From: a virus
DNA length: 32,000 nucleotides
Reading direction: 5' to 3' (one strand)
Virus record (IMG/VR): IMGVR_UViG_3300013426_000021
Location: 31,669 to 63,668 of that record
Part shown: positions 1,928-31,937 of the stretch, in pieces
Numbering within the stretch: the first letter of the stretch is position 1
Layout of the letters: every line of letters begins with the position of its first letter
Made by a program: the position numbers and the translations under genes
The notes under the pieces: generated by a model
The model's input: the letters and a program-made list of their open reading frames with translations, nothing else
What the model was told of the DNA's origin: nothing
Databases searched by the model: none

Positions 1928-2833
1928 ATGGTAAAACGATTTGCGGCAGTTGCGCTGAGCATTATGCTTCTGCTTTGCGGCATCGCAAACGCGGAAACGC
2001 TGAAGATGCTGGACACGGGGGACGAAGTGCTTGCGCTGAAAAAGGCGCTGATGGCGGCGGGATATCTGGAAGCGACAGAAGAAACGACGAACGTATTCGA
2101 CAAGGCGACAAAGAACGCCATCGAGGAGCTGCAGAAGGATTTTGAGCTGGAGGAAACGGGAATTGCAACGCCGGAAATACAGGTGATCTGTACGCTGTTG
2201 GGAAAACTTACGGAAACGAAATCAACCGCCGGACAAGAGGAAGCAGATGCCGACATGGTAGTTATGCCGGATGTTTACGGCATAACAGCAGAAGACGCAG
2301 CAGAAGCATTGAAAAAGCTTGGCCTCTATGTTATTTTTACGGAAAGATATGACGACTCGCAAGAAGGAACGGTGTGCTATACCGGTTGTAAACCCGGAGA
2401 GAAACTAAAAAAAGGAAGCAAGGTAATTGTGCGCGTTAGCAAGGGGCCTCGCAGGATTGAATCCAAAGCCAGCACCATTACCTGGTGGCACGTGAAGGGG
2501 TCTAATAGTGATGATTACGAATTTGAAAATCCTTACATTTACGAAGATACGCTCATCATCAAACTTGACGTGACACTCAACTCTGAATACAGCCTGCGTT
2601 GGCGGGGATATGGCACAGCCTGCATTACGGACAGATTTGATAAGACCGTTCCGATAGAGGTAAAGTATGAAAACGAGCAAATCAAAAAGGGCGAAACACA
2701 AGCAGTCACCCTAAGAATCCCTCTGAGAGACCTCGACGTTAAGAAGCCGACAACCTTATCTGTCGAGCTTCAGCTATACCGCGGTAAACAAACCCCGACG
2801 CAAATCCGTCTGGATTTCACAATGACATGGTAA
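1928..2833 (+). CDS. secreted protein with PG_binding_1-like domain, PASTA domain and an unassigned beta-rich C-terminal domain
   Basis: N-terminal signal peptide MVKRFAAVALSIMLLLCGIANA|ET. LDTGDEVLALKKALMAAGYL...ETGIATPE matches a peptidoglycan-binding repeat. VVMPDVYGITAEDAAEALKKLGLYV...GSKVIVRVSKG matches PASTA. AAAGGA RBS, TAA stop. Opposite strand to the backbone. Confidence 0.8.
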   Translation: MVKRFAAVALSIMLLLCGIANAETLKMLDTGDEVLALKKALMAAGYLEATEETTNVFDKATKNAIEELQKDFELEETGIATPEIQVICTLLGKLTETKSTAGQEEADADMVVMPDVYGITAEDAAEALKKLGLYVIFTERYDDSQEGTVCYTGCKPGEKLKKGSKVIVRVSKGPRRIESKASTITWWHVKGSNSDDYEFENPYIYEDTLIIKLDVTLNSEYSLRWRGYGTACITDRFDKTVPIEVKYENEQIKKGETQAVTLRIPLRDLDVKKPTTLSVELQLYRGKQTPTQIRLDFTMTW

Positions 2834-2858
2834 ATGAAAGCACAGCACAAAATGACCA

Positions 2859-2893
2859 TTGACGTTTTGCGCTCCGGCGATGTATGATATAAA
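2859..2893 (+). promoter_or_regulatory. sigma-A type promoter of small gene P1
   Basis: TTGACG (2859-2864), 18-nt spacer, then TATGAT (2883-2888), overlapping TGATATAAA (2885-2893). The homologous box sits upstream of paralogue P2. Confidence 0.55.
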
Positions 2894-2937
2894 TGATATC
2901 CGAGGTAATATTCAGTCCCTCCCAAAGGAGAATGAAT

Positions 2938-3183
2938 ATGAAAAAAGGTATCATTATCACGCTCGCGCTTGTTACATTTCTTGTAGCTGTTTTCAGCTTT
3001 GACATTCCGGCAATATCCGCGCTGGGTATTGCTTAGGCGCTGGAAACATTCCTGCGCAAGTGGGATGGCGCAAGTACAGCCTGTTTGATCGTAAGCCTTT
3101 TAGGAATGTACTCTTCTCTGTTTGGATGGATCGGCGTCGCCCTTGCTGCGCTTGATCTATACCAGACATAGAGGAAACGATGA
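2938..3183 (+). CDS. small 2-3 TM membrane protein P1 (holin-like size), readable only if TAG at 3034 and 3169 is translated
   Basis: GGAG RBS 7 nt before ATG 2938. Product: MKKGIIITLALVTFLVAVFSFDIPAISALGIA-TAG-ALETFLRKWDGASTACLIVSLLGMYSSLFGWIGVALAALDLYQT-TAG-RKR-TGA. The segment after the first TAG is conserved in frame with P2. A terminator follows. Confidence 0.6.
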
Positions 3184-3197
3184 AACAGGCGGAGAAG

Positions 3198-3224
3198 AAG
3201 CCCCCCACGGGGCTTTTTCTTTTA
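3198..3224 (+). terminator. rho-independent terminator after P1
   Basis: Stem AAGCCCC/GGGGCTT (7 bp, loop CCAC) followed by a TTTTTCTTTT run. Confidence 0.7.
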
Positions 3225-3247
3225 TGGGCTGGAATAAACAGACAGAA

Positions 3248-3258
3248 TATGATATACT
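3248..3258 (+). promoter_or_regulatory. extended -10 promoter of small gene P2
   Basis: TATGATATACT (TG-a-TATACT). The 5' leader GATATCCGAG..AATATT.AGTCCCTCC..AAAGGAGAAT is conserved with the P1 leader. Confidence 0.5.
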
Positions 3259-3309
3259 ATCATTGATATCCGAGAAAATATTTAGTCCCTCCCCGAAAGG
3301 AGAATAAAT

Positions 3310-3567
3310 ATGAACAAAGATATCAAAACCAAAGCTGCGCTGTTCTTTGCCGCAGTTAACGTACTGCTGGCGATTGCCGGTCTGTTCTTCCCGCTCGCGT
3401 CGTTATAGACGCTGGCCTGGGCGCTGGCTGGCTTCCTGCAAAAACAGGACGTCGAAACCGCATGCTGTCTCATTGTGGGCCTTTAGGGGATGAGCTTCTC
3501 CGCCTTTGGATGGGTCGGACTCGGCATTGCCGTTGCCGCCCTGATACTGGCGCGGAAAGCGCAATGA
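3310..3567 (+). CDS. small membrane protein P2, paralogue of P1, with in-frame TAG at 3406 and 3484
   Basis: Same RBS spacing as P1. Product: MNKDIKTKAALFFAAVNVLLAIAGLFFPLASL-TAG-TLAWALAGFLQKQDVETACCLIVGL-TAG-GMSFSAFGWVGLGIAVAALILARKAQ-TGA. The first TAG is codon 33, as in P1. Many synonymous differences versus P1 occur downstream of the TAG. Confidence 0.6.
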
Positions 3568-3577
3568 GACGAAGACG

Positions 3578-3609
3578 GAGCCTTGCTACAAGCAGGGCTC
3601 TTTCTTTTT
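3578..3609 (+). terminator. rho-independent terminator after P2
   Basis: Stem GAGCCTTGC/GCAGGGCTC (9 bp with one G-U) followed by TTTCTTTTT. Confidence 0.7.
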
Positions 3610-3642
3610 GCCAATGGCCATTTTGTGCCGTGCTTTACAGAG

Positions 3643-4842
3643 TTAATTTTTCAATTCGACGAGATACTTGACGGTCGTCTGGCATTCCTGATAGACGATG
3701 ATCTCGTCGTTGCGGAGCATTGCCCCTTCATGCGCATGCAGACAGTTCGCGCCAGGACATGCGGCCTGAAGTTTTTCATAGTCGAAGGAGTTATAAGCGC
3801 CGGAGAAAGAATAAACGTCGTACGGTTTGCCGTAGGCGACCTCATACAGTCCCATAAAAGCGCTGTTCTCACTGCCTTTAGCCCAATAAGAACCGGAAAG
3901 GGAAGTGTAACCAAGCGACTTGCGCGCCTTTGTGGCGAAATAGATACCGTAACCGAACATCTTGCCGGTGATAACCGCGTTGGTGGGCTTGAGAACAAGG
4001 CCGCCGGTGAGGATGGACCACCAGTTTTCATTGCGGCTGCCATGCCAGAGCAGCTTGGTAGCGATATGAGCAGGCTCGACATAATTATCGAACGCCTGCT
4101 GGGTACGAAGGTTCCGAACCCGCCACGCCTGACGGAATTTATCGGCGCAGGAACCGAGGCAGGACTTGATTTTAATGATGTCTTCGGGCGTTGCTTCTTC
4201 AAAGACAAGACCGTTCGCCTCGAGGACGGTCTGCTGTACTGGAGCAGTATCGACAACTTTTACCGGCTGCGGGACATAGACCTGACCGCGCATAATATCC
4301 AGCAGATCCTGTTCTCGGCGGATAATATCGCCGAACTGGTCGACCGAAGTGGCCAAATGAGAGCGGACGCTGGCCATGCGGCGGGGAATAATGCCGAACA
4401 ATTCCGACAACAGCAGATTAAAATCATTCAAGCTGCGTTTATCAACCAGCGCGTTCAGCATGAGCTGCGCTTCATCGACCATCGCCATAGTGACCTTGTT
4501 GGACGAGATGGTGTAGTTCTCCGCAACCGCCTGCCGCGCCATTTCTCTCAGCCGGCGGACAATTTCAGCGATGGGTTTCTGCAGGATCGGCCGATAATCA
4601 TCTGTAACAGGCTGTACTTCAATCAGGTCTCGCACAAGCCATGTACGATCAACATACCCTTTGGAAAGCTTTTCGTTGTATTTCTTCTCCCAGTCCCGGA
4701 GGGAGTAAGTCCGACGCTGCGGGCTTGCCCCCACACGACCGTAAGCCGCTTCCCAGACGGAGCCCATCGGGGTCATATCATAATATTTATTATTGTTGGC
4801 GTCGGCGGATATTTTCACCAGCCGCCGCGGTGTGTATTCCAT
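3643..4842 (-). CDS. WGR-domain poly/mono(ADP-ribose) polymerase (PARP1-3-like H-Y-E catalytic domain)
   Basis: N-terminus NNKYYDMTPMGSVWEAAYGRVGAS...KGY matches the WGR domain. A helical middle region follows. The catalytic domain has LLWHGSRNENWWSILTGGL (His), KMFGYGIYFATKARKS (Tyr) and NDEIIVYQECQTTVKYLVELK (Glu). ATG 4842 overlaps the upstream TGA (TGATG). Confidence 0.85.
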   Translation of the reverse strand: MEYTPRRLVKISADANNNKYYDMTPMGSVWEAAYGRVGASPQRRTYSLRDWEKKYNEKLSKGYVDRTWLVRDLIEVQPVTDDYRPILQKPIAEIVRRLREMARQAVAENYTISSNKVTMAMVDEAQLMLNALVDKRSLNDFNLLLSELFGIIPRRMASVRSHLATSVDQFGDIIRREQDLLDIMRGQVYVPQPVKVVDTAPVQQTVLEANGLVFEEATPEDIIKIKSCLGSCADKFRQAWRVRNLRTQQAFDNYVEPAHIATKLLWHGSRNENWWSILTGGLVLKPTNAVITGKMFGYGIYFATKARKSLGYTSLSGSYWAKGSENSAFMGLYEVAYGKPYDVYSFSGAYNSFDYEKLQAACPGANCLHAHEGAMLRNDEIIVYQECQTTVKYLVELKN

Positions 4843-5297
4843 CACAGCGTATACACCACGATATCGACGCGCGTATCATCAAACGTTTCGAGGATCAGCT
4901 CACGAACATCATCCCAGTTCAAACGATCGAGCCCGCAGCCGATGCGCGGCATAGCGAGACGGGTGATTCCACGCTCCTGAATATGCCGGCGGAGATCGAA
5001 CAGAGCGGCTCCAAGCGTTTCAAGCGTGGGTTTTTCATAGCACCGTTCTTTGGTGACGAGGTTATAAACATCCAGCACGGGGAGCGCGCAAGGCCCCCAG
5101 CCTTCAAAATCATACTCGCCGTACATCTGGCGAAGCTTTTCCTTCATATCATACTGGGTATCAATCTGCCTGGCGACGCCAGCGCCCAGAGCAAAATCCG
5201 CGCTGATGCAATGCACAAGCGCCCAGCCGCGGGGCGCGCTAAGCAGATCGCCTTTGATTTCAGAGAATGTCAATTTCGGATTACAGGTTTCGCACAT
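4842..5297 (-). CDS. TARG1/OARD1-like macrodomain ADP-ribosyl hydrolase
   Basis: 151 aa. KGDLL...LVHCISADFALGAGVA, LVTKERCYEKPTLETL, MPRIGCGLDRLNWDDV and C-terminal IVVYTL are nearly collinear with my recollection of human TARG1. GGAGG RBS. Confidence 0.85.
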   Translation of the reverse strand: MCETCNPKLTFSEIKGDLLSAPRGWALVHCISADFALGAGVARQIDTQYDMKEKLRQMYGEYDFEGWGPCALPVLDVYNLVTKERCYEKPTLETLGAALFDLRRHIQERGITRLAMPRIGCGLDRLNWDDVRELILETFDDTRVDIVVYTL

Positions 5298-5312
5298 ATC
5301 AATTTCCTCCTG

Positions 5313-6623
5313 TCAATAATAGCTGACTTCTTTGCCGGGCTCACGCAGATCTTTGAAAACCGGAAAACGGAGCGACTCGACGCCCGATTTATCCTGCGTG
5401 ACCTCAAAATACTGCACCGTAACGACCCGACCAATAAATTGGGACGGATTCGCCCAGACCTCGCGGCGGAAAGAATCCGTCATGCCGGAGCCGACACGGA
5501 CGGGATTGCCCTTAAAATCCACCACCAATGCGCCGAGCGTGCCCTTGAAGCGGCCGCCGCCTTCTTCGACACCGGTAATTGCAAGATCGCAATCCTGCAT
5601 GGCTTTGACCTTAAGCAAATTCCGGGTTCGCTTGAACTCATAGGGCGCGTCGAGCAGGTTGATCATCACGCCTTCATGACTGAGGCCGCGCTGAATTTCA
5701 AGATGGCGAAGGATTTCATTTACATCGCCGCCGACATAGAGGACGGGAACGGCCTTGATATGCTCGACGTCATGGACGATCGCTTCCAGCTCCTGCCGGC
5801 GAAGATAATACGGCGTGGTGCAGTCGTGGTTGAGAAAAACGCTGTAATCAACGATATCGAACGCGTTGAACACAATGCCGCGCTTTTCACCATCCCGGCG
5901 GACAATCTGCACGGTGTGCTTATACTGCTCTTTGCTGGGGATATTCTCCCTGTCTGCGATGAGCAGCTCGCCGTCAAGCACAAAGCCAAGCGCGCCGCCG
6001 TCAGTAAGCGTGAGAATATCTTCTTCCAATTCGACAAGCCCTTCGATAGGCTGACCCTGCCGGGTATAGAAACGGGGCGGCTTGCCCTTCTCGGCCACGC
6101 ACTGACAGCGAACGCCGTCCAGCTTTTCGGTAAGCGCGAACCGTCTGCCTTCAACCGCTTCGGGATGCTCGAAATATTTCTCGGCCAGCATACATTCATA
6201 CACGGGAATAACCGTGCGGCCAAGAACCTTGTTGACCGTCTTAGCAGAAATACCGAGCGGGATATCCTTACAGAGGAATCGAACAAGGAACTCGCGCAAG
6301 GCCGGGTCGGCTATATTGGCGAGCGTATACTGCAGTCTGGCGAGGACCTGCATATCTGCGGCGCGCAGGCCGGACAAATATTCGCACATGGTAAAAAGAT
6401 CATCCCAATATGAAGCCAGCGTGATATTCAAATTTTTCTCAAGCGACCTGCGCTGAACATGAAAGACGACCATAGGATCGAGCAGAAGCTTCAGGGCGGA
6501 AAACGCCGCAGGACTCTGGGCGCAGGCCAGAATTTCCGGCTCTTTCGCCTTGCCTCGCGCGGTTTGAATCGCATCGAAGCAAGGCCTGATTTCGTGAAGC
6601 TGAGATTCAAGAGTGAAAGACAT
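5313..6623 (-). CDS. lig: ATP-dependent DNA ligase
   Basis: Motif I EKLDGVR, plus LDGELL, FNAFDI, EGVMIN and LLKVK, with an OB-fold-like C-terminus. Start set at MSFTLES (ATG 6623, AAAGGAA RBS). The 100-codon upstream extension in the ORF track has no coding character. Confidence 0.85.
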   Translation of the reverse strand: MSFTLESQLHEIRPCFDAIQTARGKAKEPEILACAQSPAAFSALKLLLDPMVVFHVQRRSLEKNLNITLASYWDDLFTMCEYLSGLRAADMQVLARLQYTLANIADPALREFLVRFLCKDIPLGISAKTVNKVLGRTVIPVYECMLAEKYFEHPEAVEGRRFALTEKLDGVRCQCVAEKGKPPRFYTRQGQPIEGLVELEEDILTLTDGGALGFVLDGELLIADRENIPSKEQYKHTVQIVRRDGEKRGIVFNAFDIVDYSVFLNHDCTTPYYLRRQELEAIVHDVEHIKAVPVLYVGGDVNEILRHLEIQRGLSHEGVMINLLDAPYEFKRTRNLLKVKAMQDCDLAITGVEEGGGRFKGTLGALVVDFKGNPVRVGSGMTDSFRREVWANPSQFIGRVVTVQYFEVTQDKSGVESLRFPVFKDLREPGKEVSYY

Positions 6624-6925
6624 GATGTATTCCTTTCTTGATTGATGTATAATTGCGTTATGCGGCCAGAGGCGAGGGAACCCATTTCGCACGATACGTT
6701 GAAGGGAAGGAGGCCACAGCTTCAAATGGAGAAGATAGTAACAATTTAGAACATTATTCTGATTGTGCTTCAGCTGATTGCAGCTGCGTTCGAGTTGGCT
6801 AAACCACAGGACACCGCTGTGACCATCCATGTTGAGGGCAATAACAACAACGTTATTGTCATTGTCAACACTGGGATGAAGTAACAACCGCCAGTGATGA
6901 CGCGCCGTGTTACTTCTCCGGCGCA

Positions 6926-6958
6926 TAACGCAAAAGGAATTGCGCGCGAATCGCGCAA
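6926..6958 (-). terminator. rho-independent terminator after the PAPS-reductase gene
   Basis: On the minus strand: TTGCGCG-attcg-CGCGCAA hairpin (6940-6958) followed by TTCCTTTTG. Confidence 0.55.
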
Positions 6959-6963
6959 GGAAA

Positions 6964-7824
6964 TTACACAGATAAATACCAGGCCATTACCTCTTCAGGC
7001 GAAGACCACAGATCGTTCGGCAAACCACGTTCGTCCCGCGCTTTCAACATCCGGTCGAACGCGCGAAGATACGCTTCTTCATATTTCGGATATCGTTCAA
7101 AATCGCGCTGGCGATTTTTTACGGAGCCCATCGGGCAACCGATACAGCCGAGCCGGCCATAGCCTTCATCATACAGACGGCAATGCGGAACCTGAACCAC
7201 ATCGTTCAGGAAAGACCAGACTTCCTCTGTCGACCAATCGATGATGGGGTTGACGAGCGTTTTCATGGTACGATAACAAACTTCCACCATACGGCGGGAC
7301 GAATCGTTATCATCGTTCAGGATGATACCGCCCTTCGAGCCTTCATGGAAATCGATGCCGCGCGTTAACGCAATCCGTTTCGCCCTTGCGGGCTGCTGGA
7401 GGATTTCCACAGAGCCGTGCATGGCGGCGCGGCGAGGGCTTTCCGCCCAGCGGACGCCCGTTATTGTAACACGCCCCTACCCGCCGGACTCTTTCAGATC
7501 GGCACAGCAATACCGCGCGCTCCGGGACGGCGGCTTGCCAACGGCGGGAATCAAATTCCACATGGTGATCGGGTTTCCGGCCGCGTTATACGGGATTTCC
7601 CGCGCTACGTCAGGATAATGATCCCGAATGAAACGAACCAGTTCAGGCGGGTCCACGCTTGTGACGCGATAATGCGCATCAAATTTAACGCCGGCCATTT
7701 CGCACAGATGATAAACGCATTGAGAATCTTTGCCGCCGGAGAAGGCGACATAGTACCCCTCTTCGGGCTCGAAGGTACGCAGCTTCAGGAGCGCCGCGTC
7801 GATTTTTCTCTGATCGATCATCAT
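6964..7824 (-). CDS. PAPS reductase/PP-loop family protein (phage DNA-modification-type), single reading frame interrupted by in-frame TAG at 7477-7479
   Basis: Track ORFs 7477..7878 and 6964..7422 are in the same frame. PP-loop AFSGGKDS, then ...RYCCADLKESGG-TAG-GRVTITGVRWAESPRRA...CIGCPMG. The conserved GxRxxES motif lies directly after the TAG. Start ATGATG at 7824 overlaps the upstream TGA. Confidence 0.7.
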
Positions 7825-8693
7825 CTCTCCAATATCTCCTCGCAGAGGGGGCAGGAATTCAGCACGCCGCAGATCCACCGGCAGAAATACTTATCTTTAT
7901 GCGGCCTCCAATCAAACTCAAAGAGAATTTTCTCGATCGTATCGACGACCCAGGCCATGGCGGCGTTATATGCGGCCGCGTCGAACGGTTCATCAATGAA
8001 GGTGCCATCCCGGAACATGTTGAAGCGCAGCCGGGCGGGGAAAACGCCGAATTTCTGCTTGACAAACGCGGCGTAAACATAGAGCTGCTTGCGATAAGTA
8101 TCCAGTTCCTTTTTCATGGAGCTCATGGACTTGGATTTATGATCGATGACCTCAATTTCGCCGGTTTCGCGATTTTTGAGCACCAAGTCGGCGATTCCAA
8201 CGAAAGGATAACCGCCGATTTCAATTTCGAACCGCTCTTCAGCGGCCAGAATATCATATTGATCACCGAAGCCGGAGAAAGTCTCGAAATATTCAAGGCC
8301 AGCGTCGTAATATTTCTGCGGCATGCCTTTGGGGAACGGGGGGAAGGAGTGCTGAAGCGCCTGATCATATCCTTCCTCATACTCGGACGCCATAAGAAAG
8401 TCGGGGAGCTCGCCCTTCGCCCATTTTTCCAGAATTTCATGACAGTGCGTACCGTATTCGGCGAAGGCGTTATTCTCATTGGGGACGCGATCGATATACT
8501 GGAGTTTATAAGCCAGAGGACATTGTTCAAAGGTTGCCAGACGGGAAAAAGACCACTTGGTTTCGGGAGGAATAGCGGCATCACCTCGATGGATATGGTA
8601 TAATGGCTCTGCGCAGACAACGCCGAGCCAAGCCTTTATAAAAAGGAAGGTGTAACGACTGGACACGGAGCGCCCTGCAAGGGGCGAAGGCAC
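7821..8693 (-). CDS. Cas4/RecB-like PD-(D/E)xK exonuclease with Fe-S cysteine cluster
   Basis: WSFSRLATFEQCPLAYKLQYI, IADLVL...EVIDHKS (D..E.K) and C-terminal CRWICGVLNSCPLC. There is no in-frame ATG near the N-terminus. GTG at 8693 or 8666 are the only candidate starts, so the start is uncertain. Confidence 0.75.
   Translation of the reverse strand: MPSPLAGRSVSSRYTFLFIKAWLGVVCAEPLYHIHRGDAAIPPETKWSFSRLATFEQCPLAYKLQYIDRVPNENNAFAEYGTHCHEILEKWAKGELPDFLMASEYEEGYDQALQHSFPPFPKGMPQKYYDAGLEYFETFSGFGDQYDILAAEERFEIEIGGYPFVGIADLVLKNRETGEIEVIDHKSKSMSSMKKELDTYRKQLYVYAAFVKQKFGVFPARLRFNMFRDGTFIDEPFDAAAYNAAMAWVVDTIEKILFEFDWRPHKDKYFCRWICGVLNSCPLCEEILER
8596..8604 (+). promoter_or_regulatory. candidate extended -10 promoter (TGGTATAAT) facing the copy-A element
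   Basis: ATGGTATAAT is identical to the box at 25543-25551. It lies inside the 5' end of the Cas4-like ORF, about 190 nt upstream of the GGAGG+ATG at 8782/8799. Confidence 0.35.
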
Positions 8694-9080: not shown

Positions 9081-9626
9081 TTATTTATCAGCCTTCAGCG
9101 CGGTGACGGCGGCCAGCTTTCGGGCTTCCTCTTCGATATAAAGCTCGCGGGCGCGGCGCTTGATACGCGCCTTCAGGCGGCGCTTTGCTTTGGCGCGGAG
9201 CTTTTCTTCTTCTTTCTCGCGCAGTTCGCGCTCCTTCGCCTGCATGGCTTCGAAGTCATATTTATCGCAGATCTTTTTGGCGCGGGTGGTGCTGCCGTAA
9301 AGCTTCTTGACGACGCAGGCGCAGAAGGCGGCGTATTTATCATAGGTTTCGCCGGGCATGAGGCGGACGGAGGTTGTGGTATCATCGTTCCAATGAACGA
9401 CGGTGGTATTGTTGGGGTGCGCGATTTTAAGGATATCGGGGAGAAGCTTCGCCGGCTCCTCCGGTGCTTTTGTTTTAAGGGGCGCGGAAGCAAGACAAAC
9501 ACCGACAGCCTCCGCCGGGATTGTAACAGAGTACGGATAAACATCTCCGACGGTACACGCAGTCGACGAGAACGTGGGAAGTTCGGTCATAGACGAAGTG
9601 GTAAAAACGGAAGCGTCATTCATCAT
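9081..9626 (-). CDS. hypothetical protein with Lys/Arg/Glu-rich coiled-coil C-terminus
   Basis: ATGATG start at 9626 with AAAGGA RBS. Protein-like composition. C-terminus KERELREKEEEKLRAKAKRRLKARIKRRARELYIEEEARK. TAA stop. Confidence 0.6.
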   Translation of the reverse strand: MMNDASVFTTSSMTELPTFSSTACTVGDVYPYSVTIPAEAVGVCLASAPLKTKAPEEPAKLLPDILKIAHPNNTTVVHWNDDTTTSVRLMPGETYDKYAAFCACVVKKLYGSTTRAKKICDKYDFEAMQAKERELREKEEEKLRAKAKRRLKARIKRRARELYIEEEARKLAAVTALKADK

Positions 9627-9894
9627 AAGTATCAAGTCCTTTCATTCGAATATCACGGAGGTGACCACGGAAAGCGTATTCGGAAACATGGAGCAGGGTT
9701 TTAAGCTGGTCGCGGGTATATTCCCCACCAAAGCCCTTGTAGAGATGGCGGATAAACCACTCATAAACATAAGAGCGGCACCCGTCCGGGTCGCGATAAT
9801 ATTTGCATGCGCTACAGTTTCTGCTATGCCGGTCGAAGCAACCGAGCATCAATGTGGAGACGACCCCACGATCCCATCTGCGATACCTAGCCAT
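9616..9894 (-). CDS. small Cys-rich hypothetical protein
   Basis: GGAGGG RBS before ATG 9894. 92 aa with CFDRHSRNCSACKYYRDPDGC. Overlaps both neighbours. Confidence 0.55.
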   Translation of the reverse strand: MARYRRWDRGVVSTLMLGCFDRHSRNCSACKYYRDPDGCRSYVYEWFIRHLYKGFGGEYTRDQLKTLLHVSEYAFRGHLRDIRMKGLDTYDE

Positions 9895-18764: not shown

Positions 18765-19670
18765 TCAGGAGAACATATGCGACGAAACGATGTCAGAAAG
18801 AACGGAAACAGCAAGATCATAGGGAACAGGTGTAAAAAGAAGTGGTATGGTTATTTTTTCGTAATCTTCACGATAAGCCGCGTTTGCGATAATTTCCTTT
18901 ATGACAGAGATAGCGCTTCCTCGAACGGCGGCGGAGGGGCATACAGTGTGCGGCGCACGTTCCATTCTTACCTGTTCTACAAGCGTGTAAAACGTATCGT
19001 CAAACCGTATGAGCGGTAAAATCTTATAAAGATCATAAAGATGCCGGGAATGCTCGGCTACCCGGCCGGTAAGATAGTAATCACACAGAGCGAATGTCTT
19101 ATCGACAAAGGTTCTTTCTATCGCCTGTACCTTCACTGGAAATGAACCCGCCCCATGCTGACAGACGATGTTCTCAAAACCGTTTCCCAGCAAATAATCG
19201 CTGACAAAACTGGAAACCGGCTTTGTCTCACACGGAAAAGAACGCATGGAAACCATCGTTTCCACCATGAGCCTGCGGCGAAGAAAATCATCTTCAATAA
19301 CAGAAGAATAATCTGCAAGGTAACGATTAAAATCTCTGCGGCTGCGGGTTTCTCCAAGATTAGTGGGAATGGCACTGATTTTCGCAAAGGCAGACACAAT
19401 ATTACGTTTCAACTGTTTCCGTTGGCCCTCCGAGAGGCGGGCATCGCAATCGATATTCAAGTCGATATCCTCTGAAAAACGATCGATTACATGATAGCAT
19501 TTGGAGAGCGAGGTGCCACCCTTAAACACAGCGTTAGGCTGCGACAGAAAAAACGCACGCAGGTATTCCGTCACATAGTAATCCTTTTCAATAATGCTGG
19601 GCAGAATCGCTTTCGCTTCGGCTGTTCGAAGCACCAGCTGCGCAAAGAACTCTCTATCCTCATGTAGCAT
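18765..19670 (-). CDS. abiEii: AbiEii/DUF1814 nucleotidyltransferase toxin (type IV TA / abortive infection)
   Basis: FKGGTSLSKCYHVIDRFSEDIDL is the hallmark AbiEii NTase motif. 301 aa. Overlaps the upstream abiEi by 11 nt. Confidence 0.85.
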   Translation of the reverse strand: MLHEDREFFAQLVLRTAEAKAILPSIIEKDYYVTEYLRAFFLSQPNAVFKGGTSLSKCYHVIDRFSEDIDLNIDCDARLSEGQRKQLKRNIVSAFAKISAIPTNLGETRSRRDFNRYLADYSSVIEDDFLRRRLMVETMVSMRSFPCETKPVSSFVSDYLLGNGFENIVCQHGAGSFPVKVQAIERTFVDKTFALCDYYLTGRVAEHSRHLYDLYKILPLIRFDDTFYTLVEQVRMERAPHTVCPSAAVRGSAISVIKEIIANAAYREDYEKITIPLLFTPVPYDLAVSVLSDIVSSHMFS

Positions 19671-20280
19671 CGTAAATCACCCCGCTTTCAACAAGAGTTC
19701 GAATCGGCTTATCGGGGAAAAAGCCGCAAAGCTGAGATATATTTTCCTTTGTAACACCGTTTGCTTTTATAAATTTGCGCAGCGCATCCCGACGTTCTTG
19801 CGATAATGCGTTGGGCGGCAAAGCATCCAGCACCTCAAAGAGCATCATCGTCGAAACATTTTTCGAAGTGACGCGCGCCGGAGGCCGTTTCAGCACAACT
19901 TGCTGCCCACCGACGGAAACAATTCTGGAACGGGAAGAAACGGCGTTTGTAAAGATTTCAACGCCATTTGGCATCTGTGTCGAGAGCCCTAAGTTATTTA
20001 TGAGCGTCGCGCCGGCGTAAAATCCGATTACCGCTCCATTCCGTTTGATATATTTTCTTTCGATGACATCGCGCGGATTCAGAACGCTGGGGCCGAAAAT
20101 CGTCTCGGAGGGGATGTAATACACCCCTTTTTGGAAACGTTTTAGTTTCCCGCACTTGCAAAGAGCAGCAAGCTGGCTACTGACCCATGGACGGGAATAA
20201 TTTTCAAATGATACGTCATCGAAAAAAATTGGAACGTTCTTCCCGTATTTCTTCAAAAGATAATCATAAAACGCTTCCAT
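19660..20280 (-). CDS. abiEi: AbiEi-type antitoxin/transcriptional regulator
   Basis: 206 aa, directly upstream of abiEii. N-terminal wHTH-like region (LAALCKCGKLKRFQKGVYYIP). Own consensus promoter. Confidence 0.75.
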   Translation of the reverse strand: MEAFYDYLLKKYGKNVPIFFDDVSFENYSRPWVSSQLAALCKCGKLKRFQKGVYYIPSETIFGPSVLNPRDVIERKYIKRNGAVIGFYAGATLINNLGLSTQMPNGVEIFTNAVSSRSRIVSVGGQQVVLKRPPARVTSKNVSTMMLFEVLDALPPNALSQERRDALRKFIKANGVTKENISQLCGFFPDKPIRTLVESGVIYDAT

Positions 20281-20637: not shown

Positions 20638-21156
20638 TTAAGTTGAAGTTGATTTTTCGCGGCAGATCATGCCGTATTCTTTTGCGAAGTTTTCATTCAT
20701 GACCGCCACGTCGATATTCCACATCGCGGTGGTTTTATATAGGCACCGTTTTAACTCGTTCTGTATCGGCGCAAGCCATTCCGGACGATGATTGGGGATA
20801 ATGAGTATAAATTTCATCGGCAAGGTTTTTATATCGGCATGCCGGATAGCACCGCCAAGGCACGGTTCAGCGCGCCTCTCCGTATAAACTGCCAGGAAAA
20901 GCTGAAGCGAATCGCAGAACTTCGAGACGACTTTCGTTATCCATGTCTCAAATTGTCCCGGACTTCCATTCTGCCTTGGAGAAGAGGACTTCACTTCGAC
21001 AAAGCAGAGCTGATTTTTCCGGTTCATAAAAATAAATTCAACGGTTGAAAAATTTTTGCCGAGACGATTATATGAACCGGATTTCTCGATATAATAAAAG
21101 CGTGCTTCGTCGAACGGACTGAACGTGATGCCAGACTCACGAACTGACAGACTCAT
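20638..21156 (-). CDS. small PD-(D/E)xK-like (restriction-endonuclease fold) candidate effector
   Basis: 172 aa. STVEFIFMNRKNQLCFVEVKSSSP fits the acidic residue ... hhhExK pattern. Translationally coupled (6-nt gap) to the ATPase. Confidence 0.5.
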   Translation of the reverse strand: MSLSVRESGITFSPFDEARFYYIEKSGSYNRLGKNFSTVEFIFMNRKNQLCFVEVKSSSPRQNGSPGQFETWITKVVSKFCDSLQLFLAVYTERRAEPCLGGAIRHADIKTLPMKFILIIPNHRPEWLAPIQNELKRCLYKTTAMWNIDVAVMNENFAKEYGMICREKSTST

Positions 21157-21162
21157 AGGCGC

Positions 21163-22173
21163 TCAACCCATCGCTTTCCTGATTTCATCTTCGTACATTT
21201 GCCGGAAGGTTTCAGAAATTGCATTATGCTGGAGCGCGGCAAGAGACTTCTGCGTTTCGCAAACCACTTCCGAATCTTCCCAATAAAGCGAATGGTAAAG
21301 GATTTCGTCCTCTGCCTTGCGTTTGATTTCGAGATAATTCGTCAGGAAATAGTCGTGCGTAGAAACGAATACCTGTACCCCGTCGCGCTGCAGAGCAAGC
21401 AGCATTTCTGCGACGACGGGAATGTACCTTGGATTCAGATTCGCTTCGGGCTCATCCCAGAAAAGCACGGCTCCGTTTTCCAGCGTGCCGTTCTTTATCA
21501 GCTGCCACAGGAGAGCAAGTTTTCGAATGCCTTCCGCGACCAGACTGAACTCGATTTTTGCCTGATTGCCCGGACGGAGATAAAACCGATCCTCTTCAAG
21601 CAAAACCTTGCCCTTGGTCGCCTGATAAAGAATATCGAGATACTTCTTTCTGCTCTCCGGATCACGGCCGGTATTGATGTCAATCTTAGCCGCGCTTACC
21701 ACGTCGACATAGGTTTCATCAAACTCTACGTTGCCGACATGAACAGCAGCTTCAAAATGCCAGCCGTTGGAGAGAATTTCCTTCGCGGGAATAAAAGTAC
21801 TGTTCAGTTCTGGGAACTGACGCTCCCACCTTTCTTCGCCGCGCACATCCGCATCCCATTTTTTGGTTTGGGAAGTAATATTCATCGAGAGCTTCGCAGC
21901 GTCCGAGAAGATGCTGACAGACCCCGTCTTGATGTTTTTCTTGCGGCTGATTAAGCGGTGGATGCAGGCACCGTCGGGCATAAAGACCTTTACGACTTTC
22001 TGCGCGAAAGAAACATCATGCCTCACCGCTCTGCAGGCGCTATACAGCAACTTCATGATATGCGTTTTCCCAACGCCGTTTTCGCCGATAAAAACGTTTA
22101 TCCCCTTGGAAAGCGGCAAATCAAGAGAACTGAAGACCGTGATATTATTTAACTGAATTTTGGTAATCGCCAA
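21163..22173 (-). CDS. ABC/SMC-like AAA_15/21-type ATPase (defence-system-type)
   Basis: Walker A GENGVGKT, signature-like SLVAEGIRKL, Walker B VLFWDEPEANLNP, H-loop VSTHD. N-terminal ITKIQLNNITVFS is typical of this family. Confidence 0.8.
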   Translation of the reverse strand: MAITKIQLNNITVFSSLDLPLSKGINVFIGENGVGKTHIMKLLYSACRAVRHDVSFAQKVVKVFMPDGACIHRLISRKKNIKTGSVSIFSDAAKLSMNITSQTKKWDADVRGEERWERQFPELNSTFIPAKEILSNGWHFEAAVHVGNVEFDETYVDVVSAAKIDINTGRDPESRKKYLDILYQATKGKVLLEEDRFYLRPGNQAKIEFSLVAEGIRKLALLWQLIKNGTLENGAVLFWDEPEANLNPRYIPVVAEMLLALQRDGVQVFVSTHDYFLTNYLEIKRKAEDEILYHSLYWEDSEVVCETQKSLAALQHNAISETFRQMYEDEIRKAMG

Positions 22174-31551: not shown

Positions 31552-31937
31552 TATTTTCCCTCCACGTTGAATTTGATTTCGGTCGGCTCTACGGTCAGCC
31601 CGTATTCGTTGCAGCACCATTCCACCAGCTGCGGGGCGAGCTGTTCCGCATTGGCACAAGCTTCTATCGCCCGCTTCTTGGATTGGCGCGGCACTTCCAG
31701 CAGCAAATGTTTAATGCCTGAGCCGAGGAAACAACTTACCACGTGCCCATACTCATATTCCGGCGTGGCGTGCAGGTAATAGCCGCGGGGTTCGTTCTTG
31801 TAGGTGAAACAGTTGGTTCCGCCCAAATTATAGATCACGGAGAGCCGGATACGGTTGGTCTTGGCATCCACCATGCGCGCATTGCGCGCCTTACTGATAT
31901 CCACGCCCGCAACGGGCACGCAGCACTCAATTCTCAT
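31551..31937 (-). CDS. hypothetical protein
   Basis: 128 aa. The ATG overlaps the upstream stop. No motif recognised. Confidence 0.5.
   Translation of the reverse strand: MRIECCVPVAGVDISKARNARMVDAKTNRIRLSVIYNLGGTNCFTYKNEPRGYYLHATPEYEYGHVVSCFLGSGIKHLLLEVPRQSKKRAIEACANAEQLAPQLVEWCCNEYGLTVEPTEIKFNVEGK

Follow-up and report, generated by a model that had tools for sequence, protein, structure and literature searches.

A TARG1-type macrodomain gene coupled to a compact WGR-PARP gene, with an interchangeable ligase slot, in a large phage-like genome

Background

Why should a phage carry, side by side, an enzyme predicted to attach ADP-ribose, another predicted to remove it and a third that seals DNA? 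The question is raised by the IMG/VR virus record IMGVR_UViG_3300013426_000021, from which we analysed a stretch of 32,000 nucleotides (nt; positions 31,669 to 63,668 of the record). This whole stretch is called the window, and all positions below are window coordinates. On its minus strand lie neighbouring genes for an ATP-dependent DNA ligase, a TARG1-type macrodomain and a compact PARP with a WGR domain, which an original prediction, made from the sequence alone, had taken for a self-contained write-erase-seal module that signals nicks in DNA.

Break-triggered ADP-ribosylation is usually seen as an invention of eukaryotes, and the function of bacterial and phage PARP-like proteins is still given as unknown. 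Phage PARPs, for instance, are of unknown or guessed function both in a jumbo-phage analysis of 2021 and in a review of 2023. The characterised bacterial enzymes, HaPARP of Herpetosiphon aurantiacus and CdPARP of Clostridioides difficile, belong to clade 2 of the bacterial PARPs, are paired with PARG and perform DNA-dependent poly-ADP-ribosylation in vitro (PMC5966428). Clade 1 of the same survey consists of a Cytophagales branch (1.1) and a Clostridiales branch (1.2), whose members combine WGR and PARP_cat domains, have a helical domain seen by modelling alone and mostly possess Tyr in the WGR motif (Garcia-Saura et al. 2018, PMC5966428). In some Firmicutes genomes, PARP genes are accompanied by TARG1-like ones, as tabulated by Perina et al. 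(2014), who also listed four viral PARPs; an operon is not mentioned there. Bacterial TARG1 sequences are otherwise scarce and come mostly from Firmicutes, according to a review of 2021.

Results and discussion

Layout of the three-gene block

The block is composed of three minus-strand open reading frames (ORFs), positioned exactly as had been claimed: the ligase (5313-6623; 436 amino acids, aa), the macrodomain protein (4842-5297; 151 aa) and the PARP (3643-4842; 399 aa). The same three genes were called by gene callers on 23 independent metagenomic contigs, which also chose the ATG at 6623 as the ligase start. A TGATG overlap noticed earlier between the last two genes is real, as the macrodomain stop codon (TGA, 4844-4842) and the PARP start codon (ATG, 4842-4840) have one base in common. 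The ligase stop and the macrodomain start, on the other hand, are separated by a spacer of 15 nt (5298-5312, minus strand) with a GGAGG ribosome-binding site, read from the sequence, at 5310-5306. Translational coupling, originally proposed for all three genes, therefore holds in the strict sense only for the macrodomain and the PARP.

A terminator-like hairpin (6940-6958, minus strand; identified by consensus scan only) lies upstream of the block and closes the preceding PAPS-reductase-like gene. It is followed by the intergenic region of 340 nt ahead of the ligase (6624-6963), within which the operon promoter presumably lies, and a consensus scan of 6624-6963 found no sigma-70-like promoter. 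At the other end, 42 nt past the PARP stop, a G+C-rich hairpin (3577-3601; consensus scan and sequence) with a T-run on its plus-strand side is the probable end of the transcription unit. Judged from these sequence features, namely genes on one strand, short or overlapping junctions and terminator-like hairpins on both sides, the block qualifies as an operon.

Conservation of the macrodomain-PARP pair

Is the adjacency of these genes more than chance? All ORFs of 77 viral loci were clustered, and at most loci the macrodomain cluster directly precedes that of the PARP. When viral and genome loci are taken together, the macrodomain immediately precedes the PARP in 70 related loci, with a gap of -16 to +27 nt in 67, and the pairwise identities of the two proteins are correlated (Pearson r = 0.69). 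A reciprocal search of viral contigs with the macrodomain alignment returned 328 stretches, and a PARP is present downstream in 70 of the best 80, which were the ones judged; for several of the other ten the flank is too short to judge. At one locus (L038; loci are cited by such numbers where they need to be told apart), the same slot is occupied by a macrodomain of another type, with the motif NCQGVMGGGIA. Chance adjacency, which the original prediction had named as the outcome that would overturn it, is refuted by this synteny in related genomes. Because of the adjacency in 70 loci, the correlated divergence and the reciprocal count, the write-erase pair, which is present in several dozen phage lineages, is a real unit and the conserved core of the operon.

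The PARPs are also far more widespread than the cultured record indicates. Phage PARPs had been described as rare, and this is true of cultured phages, where matches occur in 16 of 50,697 records and none exceeds 36% identity; a megablast of the operon region against the same records gave no match, and the distant cultured relatives are found only at the protein level. The statement fails for metagenomes, which contain more than 5,000 PARP clusters at 90% identity and, with E ≤ 1e-30, 623 at 50% identity.

The PARP protein

Both domains originally assigned to the PARP are recovered by Pfam (PARP, PF00644, 1e-21; WGR, 1.9e-5 and 25.1 bits with a cut-off of 22), and the protein matches PHROG 23333 (1e-49). 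Pfam did not detect PARP_reg in the ORF. A profile of 18 homologues aligned with a PARP1 helical and ADP-ribosyltransferase (ART) fragment in the PDB (E = 3e-27, profile positions 114-352), where the PARP1 alignment begins within the helical regulatory domain, while that to PARP2 begins at position 84. An AlphaFold2 model calculated from an alignment of 61 sequences (predicted local distance difference test, pLDDT, 91.8; predicted template modelling score 0.87) shows a beta-rich WGR domain at residues 1-70, four helices (89-109, 119-133, 138-151 and 167-187) and then the ART domain. A first model, built from 18 close homologues, was poor (pLDDT 56.6, with the catalytic domain below 50) and was not used. 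The best Foldseek matches of the retained model in the PDB are WGR-catalytic chains of PARP1 (7s6m_D, 4dqy_C) and PARP2 (6x0l_P, 7aeo_A), with E values of about 1e-19 to 5e-20 over about 470 alignment columns. Pfam, profile and fold searches agree in grouping the protein with PARP1, PARP2 and PARP3. Because the fold matches are full-length, the phage protein is a minimal WGR-helical-ART enzyme, with the architecture of PARP2 and PARP3 minus their N-terminal tails.

The WGR domain (aa 1-70) is encoded at 4633-4842, the putative helical, regulatory-type domain (aa ~89-187, delimited by profile alignment to the PARP1 helices and by confident predicted helices) at 4282-4578 and the ART catalytic domain (aa ~206-399) at 3646-4227, all on the minus strand. 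Conservation was assessed in alignment A1 (the 18 homologues from viral contigs), A5 (the 61 sequences, down to 35% identity), A2 (a closer set) and A3. The H-Y-E triad is intact, as had been claimed: H267, Y301 and E380 are invariant in the 18 and in the 61 homologues. K308, S309 and Y312 are likewise invariant in A1, A2 and A5, and G268 joins them among the invariant columns of A1.

A similar picture emerges for the residues that would recognise a DNA break. Crystal structures of the PARP2 WGR domain with DNA identified N127, N128, N129, K130, Y132, W151, R153 and Q159 as break contacts (PMC6294510), and their counterparts in the alignment are N16, N17, N18, K19, Y21, Y34, R36 and Q42. Among the PARP2 contacts, N127, N128, K130 and Q159 are specific to PARP2 and PARP3. 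Most of the phage counterparts are invariant or nearly so (N16 and K19 invariant and N17 nearly invariant in A1 and A3; R36 invariant in A1-A3 and nearly so in A5), while Q42 varies in A1 and is invariant in the closer set A2 alone. They lie in the segments N16-N17-N18-K19-Y20-Y21 and Y34-G35-R36 and at Q42, in a domain modelled with pLDDT 92-98; a WGR-only profile matched the WGR domains in the PDB weakly (E 0.01-0.03). Compared with human PARP2 and PARP3, the phage enzyme has the same three domains by profile and fold, the H-Y-E triad and the PARP2 break-contact motifs NNNKYY, (W/Y)GRVG and Q, but it is tail-less, counts only 399 aa and is about 17-20% identical in structural alignment. No PADLOC or NCBIfam model matches it.

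The macrodomain protein

The predicted ADP-ribosyl hydrolase was said to be nearly collinear with human TARG1, and a phmmer search of the PDB bears this out (TARG1/OARD1, 4j5q, E = 1.9e-26 over residues 12-151; 41% identity by BLASTP). The catalytic K84 and D125 of TARG1 correspond in the alignment to K83 (in LVTKER) and D124 (in GCGLDRL). K83 is invariant across 13 phage homologues, of which ten have D at position 124, two have E and one has G. TARG1 is reported to strip PARP3-made ADP-ribose off DNA 5'-phosphates (PMC8385414) and to free whole poly-ADP-ribose chains from modified PARP1 (PMC6397177). The phage gene is translationally coupled to a PARP, whereas the TARG1 gene of Fusobacterium mortiferum adjoins an immunity-51 gene, in a genome that has no PARP.

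We also considered whether the protein is a DarG. PADLOC gives a DarG match (3.7e-16), which covers only the macrodomain part (positions 6-143 of a 329-position model); NCBIfam scores DarG at 48 bits with a cut-off of 250, and the DarG macrodomain structures 5m3i and 5m31 match at 1e-7. This identification was rejected on the grounds that the C-terminal DarT-binding domain is absent, the scores are under the cut-off and the neighbours are a ligase and a PARP.

The same matches nevertheless place the protein in the TARG1/DarG clade, together with AdfM, a phage-encoded macrodomain shown experimentally to neutralise DarTG2 (PMC13309987). The macrodomain may thus be an orphan, AdfM-like anti-defence factor that removes DarT2-type thymidine ADP-ribosylation or some other toxin mark, with the PARP being a separate matter. 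An anti-DarT role was already raised with the original prediction, and the precedent for it is genuine, but it leaves the obligatory PARP partner unexplained: in this clade the macrodomain almost never occurs without a PARP, to which it is coupled and with which it diverges. Moreover, the phage protein is nearer to TARG1 (2e-26) than to DarG, with a TARG1-like HCISAD motif, and its partner is a PARP, whereas that of DarG is DarT. We therefore regard the AdfM-like explanation as improbable.

The ligase and the slot upstream of the pair

The ligase consists of an N-terminal DNA-binding region, a nucleotidyltransferase domain with K167 in KLDGVR and an OB domain (Pfam DNA_ligase_A_M, PF01068, 1e-17; DNA_ligase_OB_2, PF14743, 1e-14). 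It matches PHROG 114 'ATP-dependent DNA ligase' (5e-80), and the closest solved structure is a 442-aa ATP-dependent ligase (PDB 6RAS/6RAR/6RAU; E = 1e-32 across residues 41-427). All motifs are in place, as first reported (I, KLDGVR with K167; III, VLDGELL; IIIa, FNAFD; IV, EGVMI; V, LLKVK; VI, LRFPVF). The similarity extends over nearly the whole protein, in which no unusual feature was found, and only its context is notable.

That context was examined in 79 assessable lineages, obtained by dereplication at 90% PARP identity, with sampled flanks of 4-8 kb (flanks of loci in general span 4-10 kb). A ligase is present anywhere in the flanks in 36 of the 79, within 1.5 kb in 24 and immediately upstream of the pair in 16; these slot ligases are ATP-dependent in nine cases, NAD-dependent in six and Rnl-like in one. 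The ATP-dependent type occupies the slot in the window, L038/39, L044, L047-50, L055/56 and L080, the NAD-dependent LigA (confirmed by Pfam) in L031-34, L060-63 and L171-180, and the Rnl-like type (PF09414, with an N-terminal OB fold) in L186, L224 and L229. Elsewhere the slot is taken in many lineages by a polymerase III alpha subunit, an ERCC4 nuclease or a Band-7 protein.

Two loci illustrate how the slot can change its occupant. L055 has the order ATP-dependent ligase, 26 nt, macrodomain, 13 nt, PARP, and L061 the order LigA, 61 nt, macrodomain, 11 nt, PARP. Their PARPs are 82% and their macrodomains 78% identical beside ligases of different types, and therefore the ligase was replaced in place between them. 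An alternative order (PARP, small protein, ligase) is found in a prophage-like locus of Paenibacillus medicaginis (L093), in L073 and in Cellulophaga phage phi4:1, the PARP of which is only 30% identical to that of the window and has an ATP-dependent ligase one gene away. The three ligase families in one slot, their exchange between close relatives and the order in phi4:1 all speak for a genuine link between ligase and pair.

ADP-ribosyltransferases that act on host proteins are known from phage T4 (Alt, ModA and ModB). By analogy, the pair could be a device for host takeover or counter-defence, in which the PARP would ADP-ribosylate host proteins or consume nicotinamide adenine dinucleotide (NAD+), the macrodomain would protect phage components and the ligase would be a bystander, adjacent only as the three genes all belong to the early replication module. 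This is consistent with the many lineages that have no ligase in the sampled flanks or have polymerase III alpha, ERCC4 or Band-7 genes in the slot, and with the other conflict genes of the element, AbiE and HEC-02; a jumbo-phage comparison likewise proposed that phage PARPs act as host-modifying ADP-ribosyltransferases (PMC7824862). The domains of the PARP argue otherwise, as the WGR and helical domains are the break-sensing and autoinhibition apparatus of PARP1, PARP2 and PARP3, with the contacts kept, and toxin-type ADP-ribosyltransferases lack both. Furthermore, three ligase families recur in the adjacent slot, swapped in place, and PADLOC finds no match for the PARP. A takeover device is accordingly a less likely explanation, although the likeliest of the alternatives.

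A possible role in break signalling

The reading that we favour, at about even odds given what the sequences suggest, is that the operon encodes a break-triggered, reversible ADP-ribosylation module that acts in phage DNA replication or repair and is linked to the sealing of nicks. When phage DNA is replicating or damaged, the WGR domain would bind 5'-phosphorylated nicks or breaks in it, and this binding would release the autoinhibition exerted by the helical domain, so that activation would depend on DNA breaks. With NAD+ as donor, the ART domain would then ADP-ribosylate the PARP itself, proteins close by or the DNA end. The overlap of stop and start codon would keep macrodomain and PARP in fixed proportion, and the macrodomain would strip mono-ADP-ribose or whole chains from acidic residues or terminal phosphates, a removal that would reset the sensor and avert toxic build-up. 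Finally, the co-transcribed ligase, which may be linked to the pair physically or kinetically, would seal the break. The reading is built on what the sequences show, namely the order and coupling of the genes, the domain architecture, the conserved catalytic and break-contact residues, the conserved pair and the recurrent neighbouring ligase; whatever goes further is inferred.

Several observations weigh against this reading. The tryptophan of the WGR motif is replaced by Tyr (Y34), and no equivalent could be aligned for PARP2 Y201, which binds the 5'-phosphate, as the alignments end near residue 70; going by spacing alone, one candidate is Y83, a position at which most homologues have Y or F. 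PARP1 Y986 corresponds to Asn378, and the segment ahead of the catalytic Glu is, from the sequence, about 20 residues shorter than in PARP1. Because of these two differences the product may be either mono- or poly-ADP-ribose. The Pfam Macro score of the macrodomain (21.6 bits) is marginally below the cut-off of 22. With regard to the ligase, the sampled flanks of more than half of the 79 lineages contain none, and in a replication module, to which the whole region belongs, a ligase close by would be no surprise. That 16 of the 36 lineages with a ligase in the flanks have it in the slot gives a binomial P of about 1e-7 if one slot in ten is assumed and of about 8e-4 if one in five, which favours a link, but both values overstate the significance, since the lineages share ancestry and replication modules cluster such genes anyway. 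Of the proposed write-erase-seal module, the write-erase part thus stands, and the seal is the weaker part, a ligase being directly upstream in only 16 of the 79 lineages.

Published work supports the chemistry of such a module. Nicked DNA is modified at its 5'-phosphates by PARP2 and PARP3, and TARG1 can undo what PARP3 has made; in vitro, the end modification shields DNA ends from phosphatase, and assays in vitro led to the suggestion that PARP3-made 5'-ADP-ribose on gapped DNA is a ligase substrate (PMC8385414). In a further reading, the true substrate of the phage PARP would be a nucleic-acid end, either a 5'-phosphate at a nick or genome end of the phage DNA or an RNA-DNA junction, with the mark serving as a cap that shields from host exonucleases or as an NAD+-derived activated intermediate for the ligase, and with the macrodomain as proofreader. 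We consider this end-modification reading unlikely.

Distribution and relatives of the PARP family

Among species-representative genomes, close relatives of the PARP are 45-62% identical and belong mostly to Clostridia-type metagenome-assembled genomes, with a few isolates, while a second branch, 37-43% identical, is chromosomal in Cytophagales and Saprospiraceae. Judging by sequence, the window PARP family matches bacterial PARP clade 1.2, which fits both the domain features and this distribution in two branches. Clade 1.2 was treated as a set of bacterial genes, and gene context was not discussed (PMC5966428), whereas the members described here are phage-borne and have a TARG1 partner. The PARPs of cultured phages (Cellulophaga phi4:1 gp031, Klebsiella FBKp34, Xanthomonas XacN1 and Aeromonas Aeh1) belong to the same family at 25-30% identity, but their carriers infect Bacteroidota and Proteobacteria, unlike the window element. 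No TARG1-type partner was detected beside the PARP of phi4:1 or FBKp34.

The chromosomal PARPs of Bacteroidota (L100-L157) also have no macrodomain, and their partners are an ORF of about 100 aa and a WYL-domain regulator. The small ORF, which follows the PARP, is related to phi4:1 gp030 (L158; E = 2e-6). In Cytophagales and Saprospiraceae, the PARPs are often found beside a WYL/WCX regulator and pPIWI_RE_Z-like proteins, and some Bacteroidota loci continue with a CCA-adding enzyme or with a second protein that contains WGR.

Macrodomain-less PARP lineages adjoin end-repair enzymes, namely Rnl-like ligase, RlaP, Thg1-like and CCA-adding enzymes. RNA-repair-type neighbours of this kind occur at L046, L068-L071, L074 and L112, and the Rnl-like ligase carries an N-terminal OB fold. 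Because such neighbours (Rnl-like ligase, RlaP nucleotidyltransferase, Thg1-like enzyme) are of the RNA-repair type, there are hints that some family members may act at RNA or RNA-DNA ends. The common theme of the neighbours is enzymes that heal and seal polynucleotide ends.

A family of small proteins is encoded directly 3' of the PARP in at least eight lineages (L038, L039, L040, L046, L053, L059, L073 and L093), between PARP and ligase in the Paenibacillus locus L093 and in L073. It shares the core VIH..ATIVIL.DGSKG[VI]AKC..Y...G[IL]KIAY.RAKI and has no match in Pfam. It may be an accessory factor of the PARP. An ORF of the window itself (9081-9635) is weakly similar to the family (E = 1e-5; stretch 9336-9428, minus strand).

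The element and its other genes

The exact PARP sequence is indexed in 40 collection blocks, the longest carrying contig being 50-200 kb in 18 of them, and the longest among the contigs listed are 110-123 kb. Relatives are abundant in IMG/VR. From these carrying contigs and relatives it follows that the element is a large phage-like genome of about 110-123 kb, with the operon within its replication module. Its neighbours encode a Toprim/DnaB-type primase-helicase, a DUF2828/DUF7788 protein, a single-stranded DNA-binding protein, an AAA_24 ATPase and a Cas4-like PD-(D/E)XK nuclease, and just past the PARP on the carrying contigs are genes for DNA polymerase III alpha subunit, a Band-7 protein, ThyX and dUTPase. 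A PAPS-reductase-like protein, a sigma-like factor, a tyrosine integrase and three Bro-N/ANT proteins are encoded there as well. The host is probably a Gram-positive bacterium of the gut and Clostridia type, as indicated by the relatives in Clostridia-type bins and by a PASTA/peptidoglycan-binding gene.

The integrase, the Bro/ANT antirepressors and two defence systems raise one more alternative, in which the pair would serve a temperate element in the manner of a toxin-antitoxin system or for abortive infection, with the PARP as a break-triggered effector that depletes NAD+ or modifies itself and the macrodomain as its antidote. The writer-eraser arrangement with overlapping codons indeed recalls the logic of DarTG. 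Here the eraser gene comes first and lacks a toxin-binding domain, and the pair is located among genes of replication and nucleotide metabolism in many phage lineages, outside the accessory region. As no defence-system model matches the PARP either, such a module seems very improbable.

The defence systems themselves are an AbiEi/AbiEii pair (PADLOC 5e-57 and 7e-75; 18765-20280, minus strand) and an adjoining HEC-02 A/B candidate defence pair (9e-126 and 9e-48; 20638-22173, minus strand), the latter composed of an AAA_21-type ATPase and a small partner.

The PAPS-reductase-like gene (6964-7878, minus strand) is a single frame broken by one in-frame TAG at 7477-7479 ('...KESGG*GRVTITG...'). PHROG 424 matches both halves, in order, and the split calls are identical on all independent contigs examined. 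TAG is the stop codon of two of the 30 window genes. The gene is either a conserved pseudogene or a case of TAG recoding or readthrough.

Between the PARP and the convergent PASTA/peptidoglycan-binding gene (1928-2833, plus strand) lie about 800 nt without a convincing gene (2834-3642), which contain the strong hairpin at 3577-3601. Searches of the window, this interval included, gave neither a tRNA nor an Rfam family. The DNA polymerase III alpha gene that comes after the PARP is located below about 1851 on the minus strand and runs off the window. Its product differs between contigs that are otherwise near-identical (L160-L165), counting 1058 aa on some of them but 1503 aa where an intein-splicing domain is included; the difference in length is a presence/absence polymorphism of an intein.

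Conclusions

The genes described here are new members of known families, and their arrangement, with a coupled phage TARG1-PARP pair in a replication module and an interchangeable ligase slot, appears to be unreported. No description of a phage TARG1-PARP operon or of a ligase link was found in the full-text literature, a coverage outside which most subscription journals lie. Among large phages whose hosts are Firmicutes of gut and rumen, a compact enzyme like PARP2 and PARP3 is common. Its near-constant coupling to a TARG1-type protein and the recurrent, interchangeable ligases offer a minimal and genetically tractable system for break-dependent ADP-ribosylation, in which it could be asked whether the ADP-ribosylation of DNA ends is physiological. 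Cultured carriers include the Paenibacillus medicaginis prophage-like locus, Ruminococcus sp. YE282, Lacrimispora amygdalina, Clostridium tagluense and Cellulophaga phage phi4:1. The concentration of bacterial TARG1-like sequences in Firmicutes would also be explained if those sequences prove to be phage- or prophage-borne like the ones sampled here. Should the end-modification reading be true, the eukaryotic PARP2/3-TARG1 break-signalling pair would be evolutionarily connected to a phage replication module of this kind.

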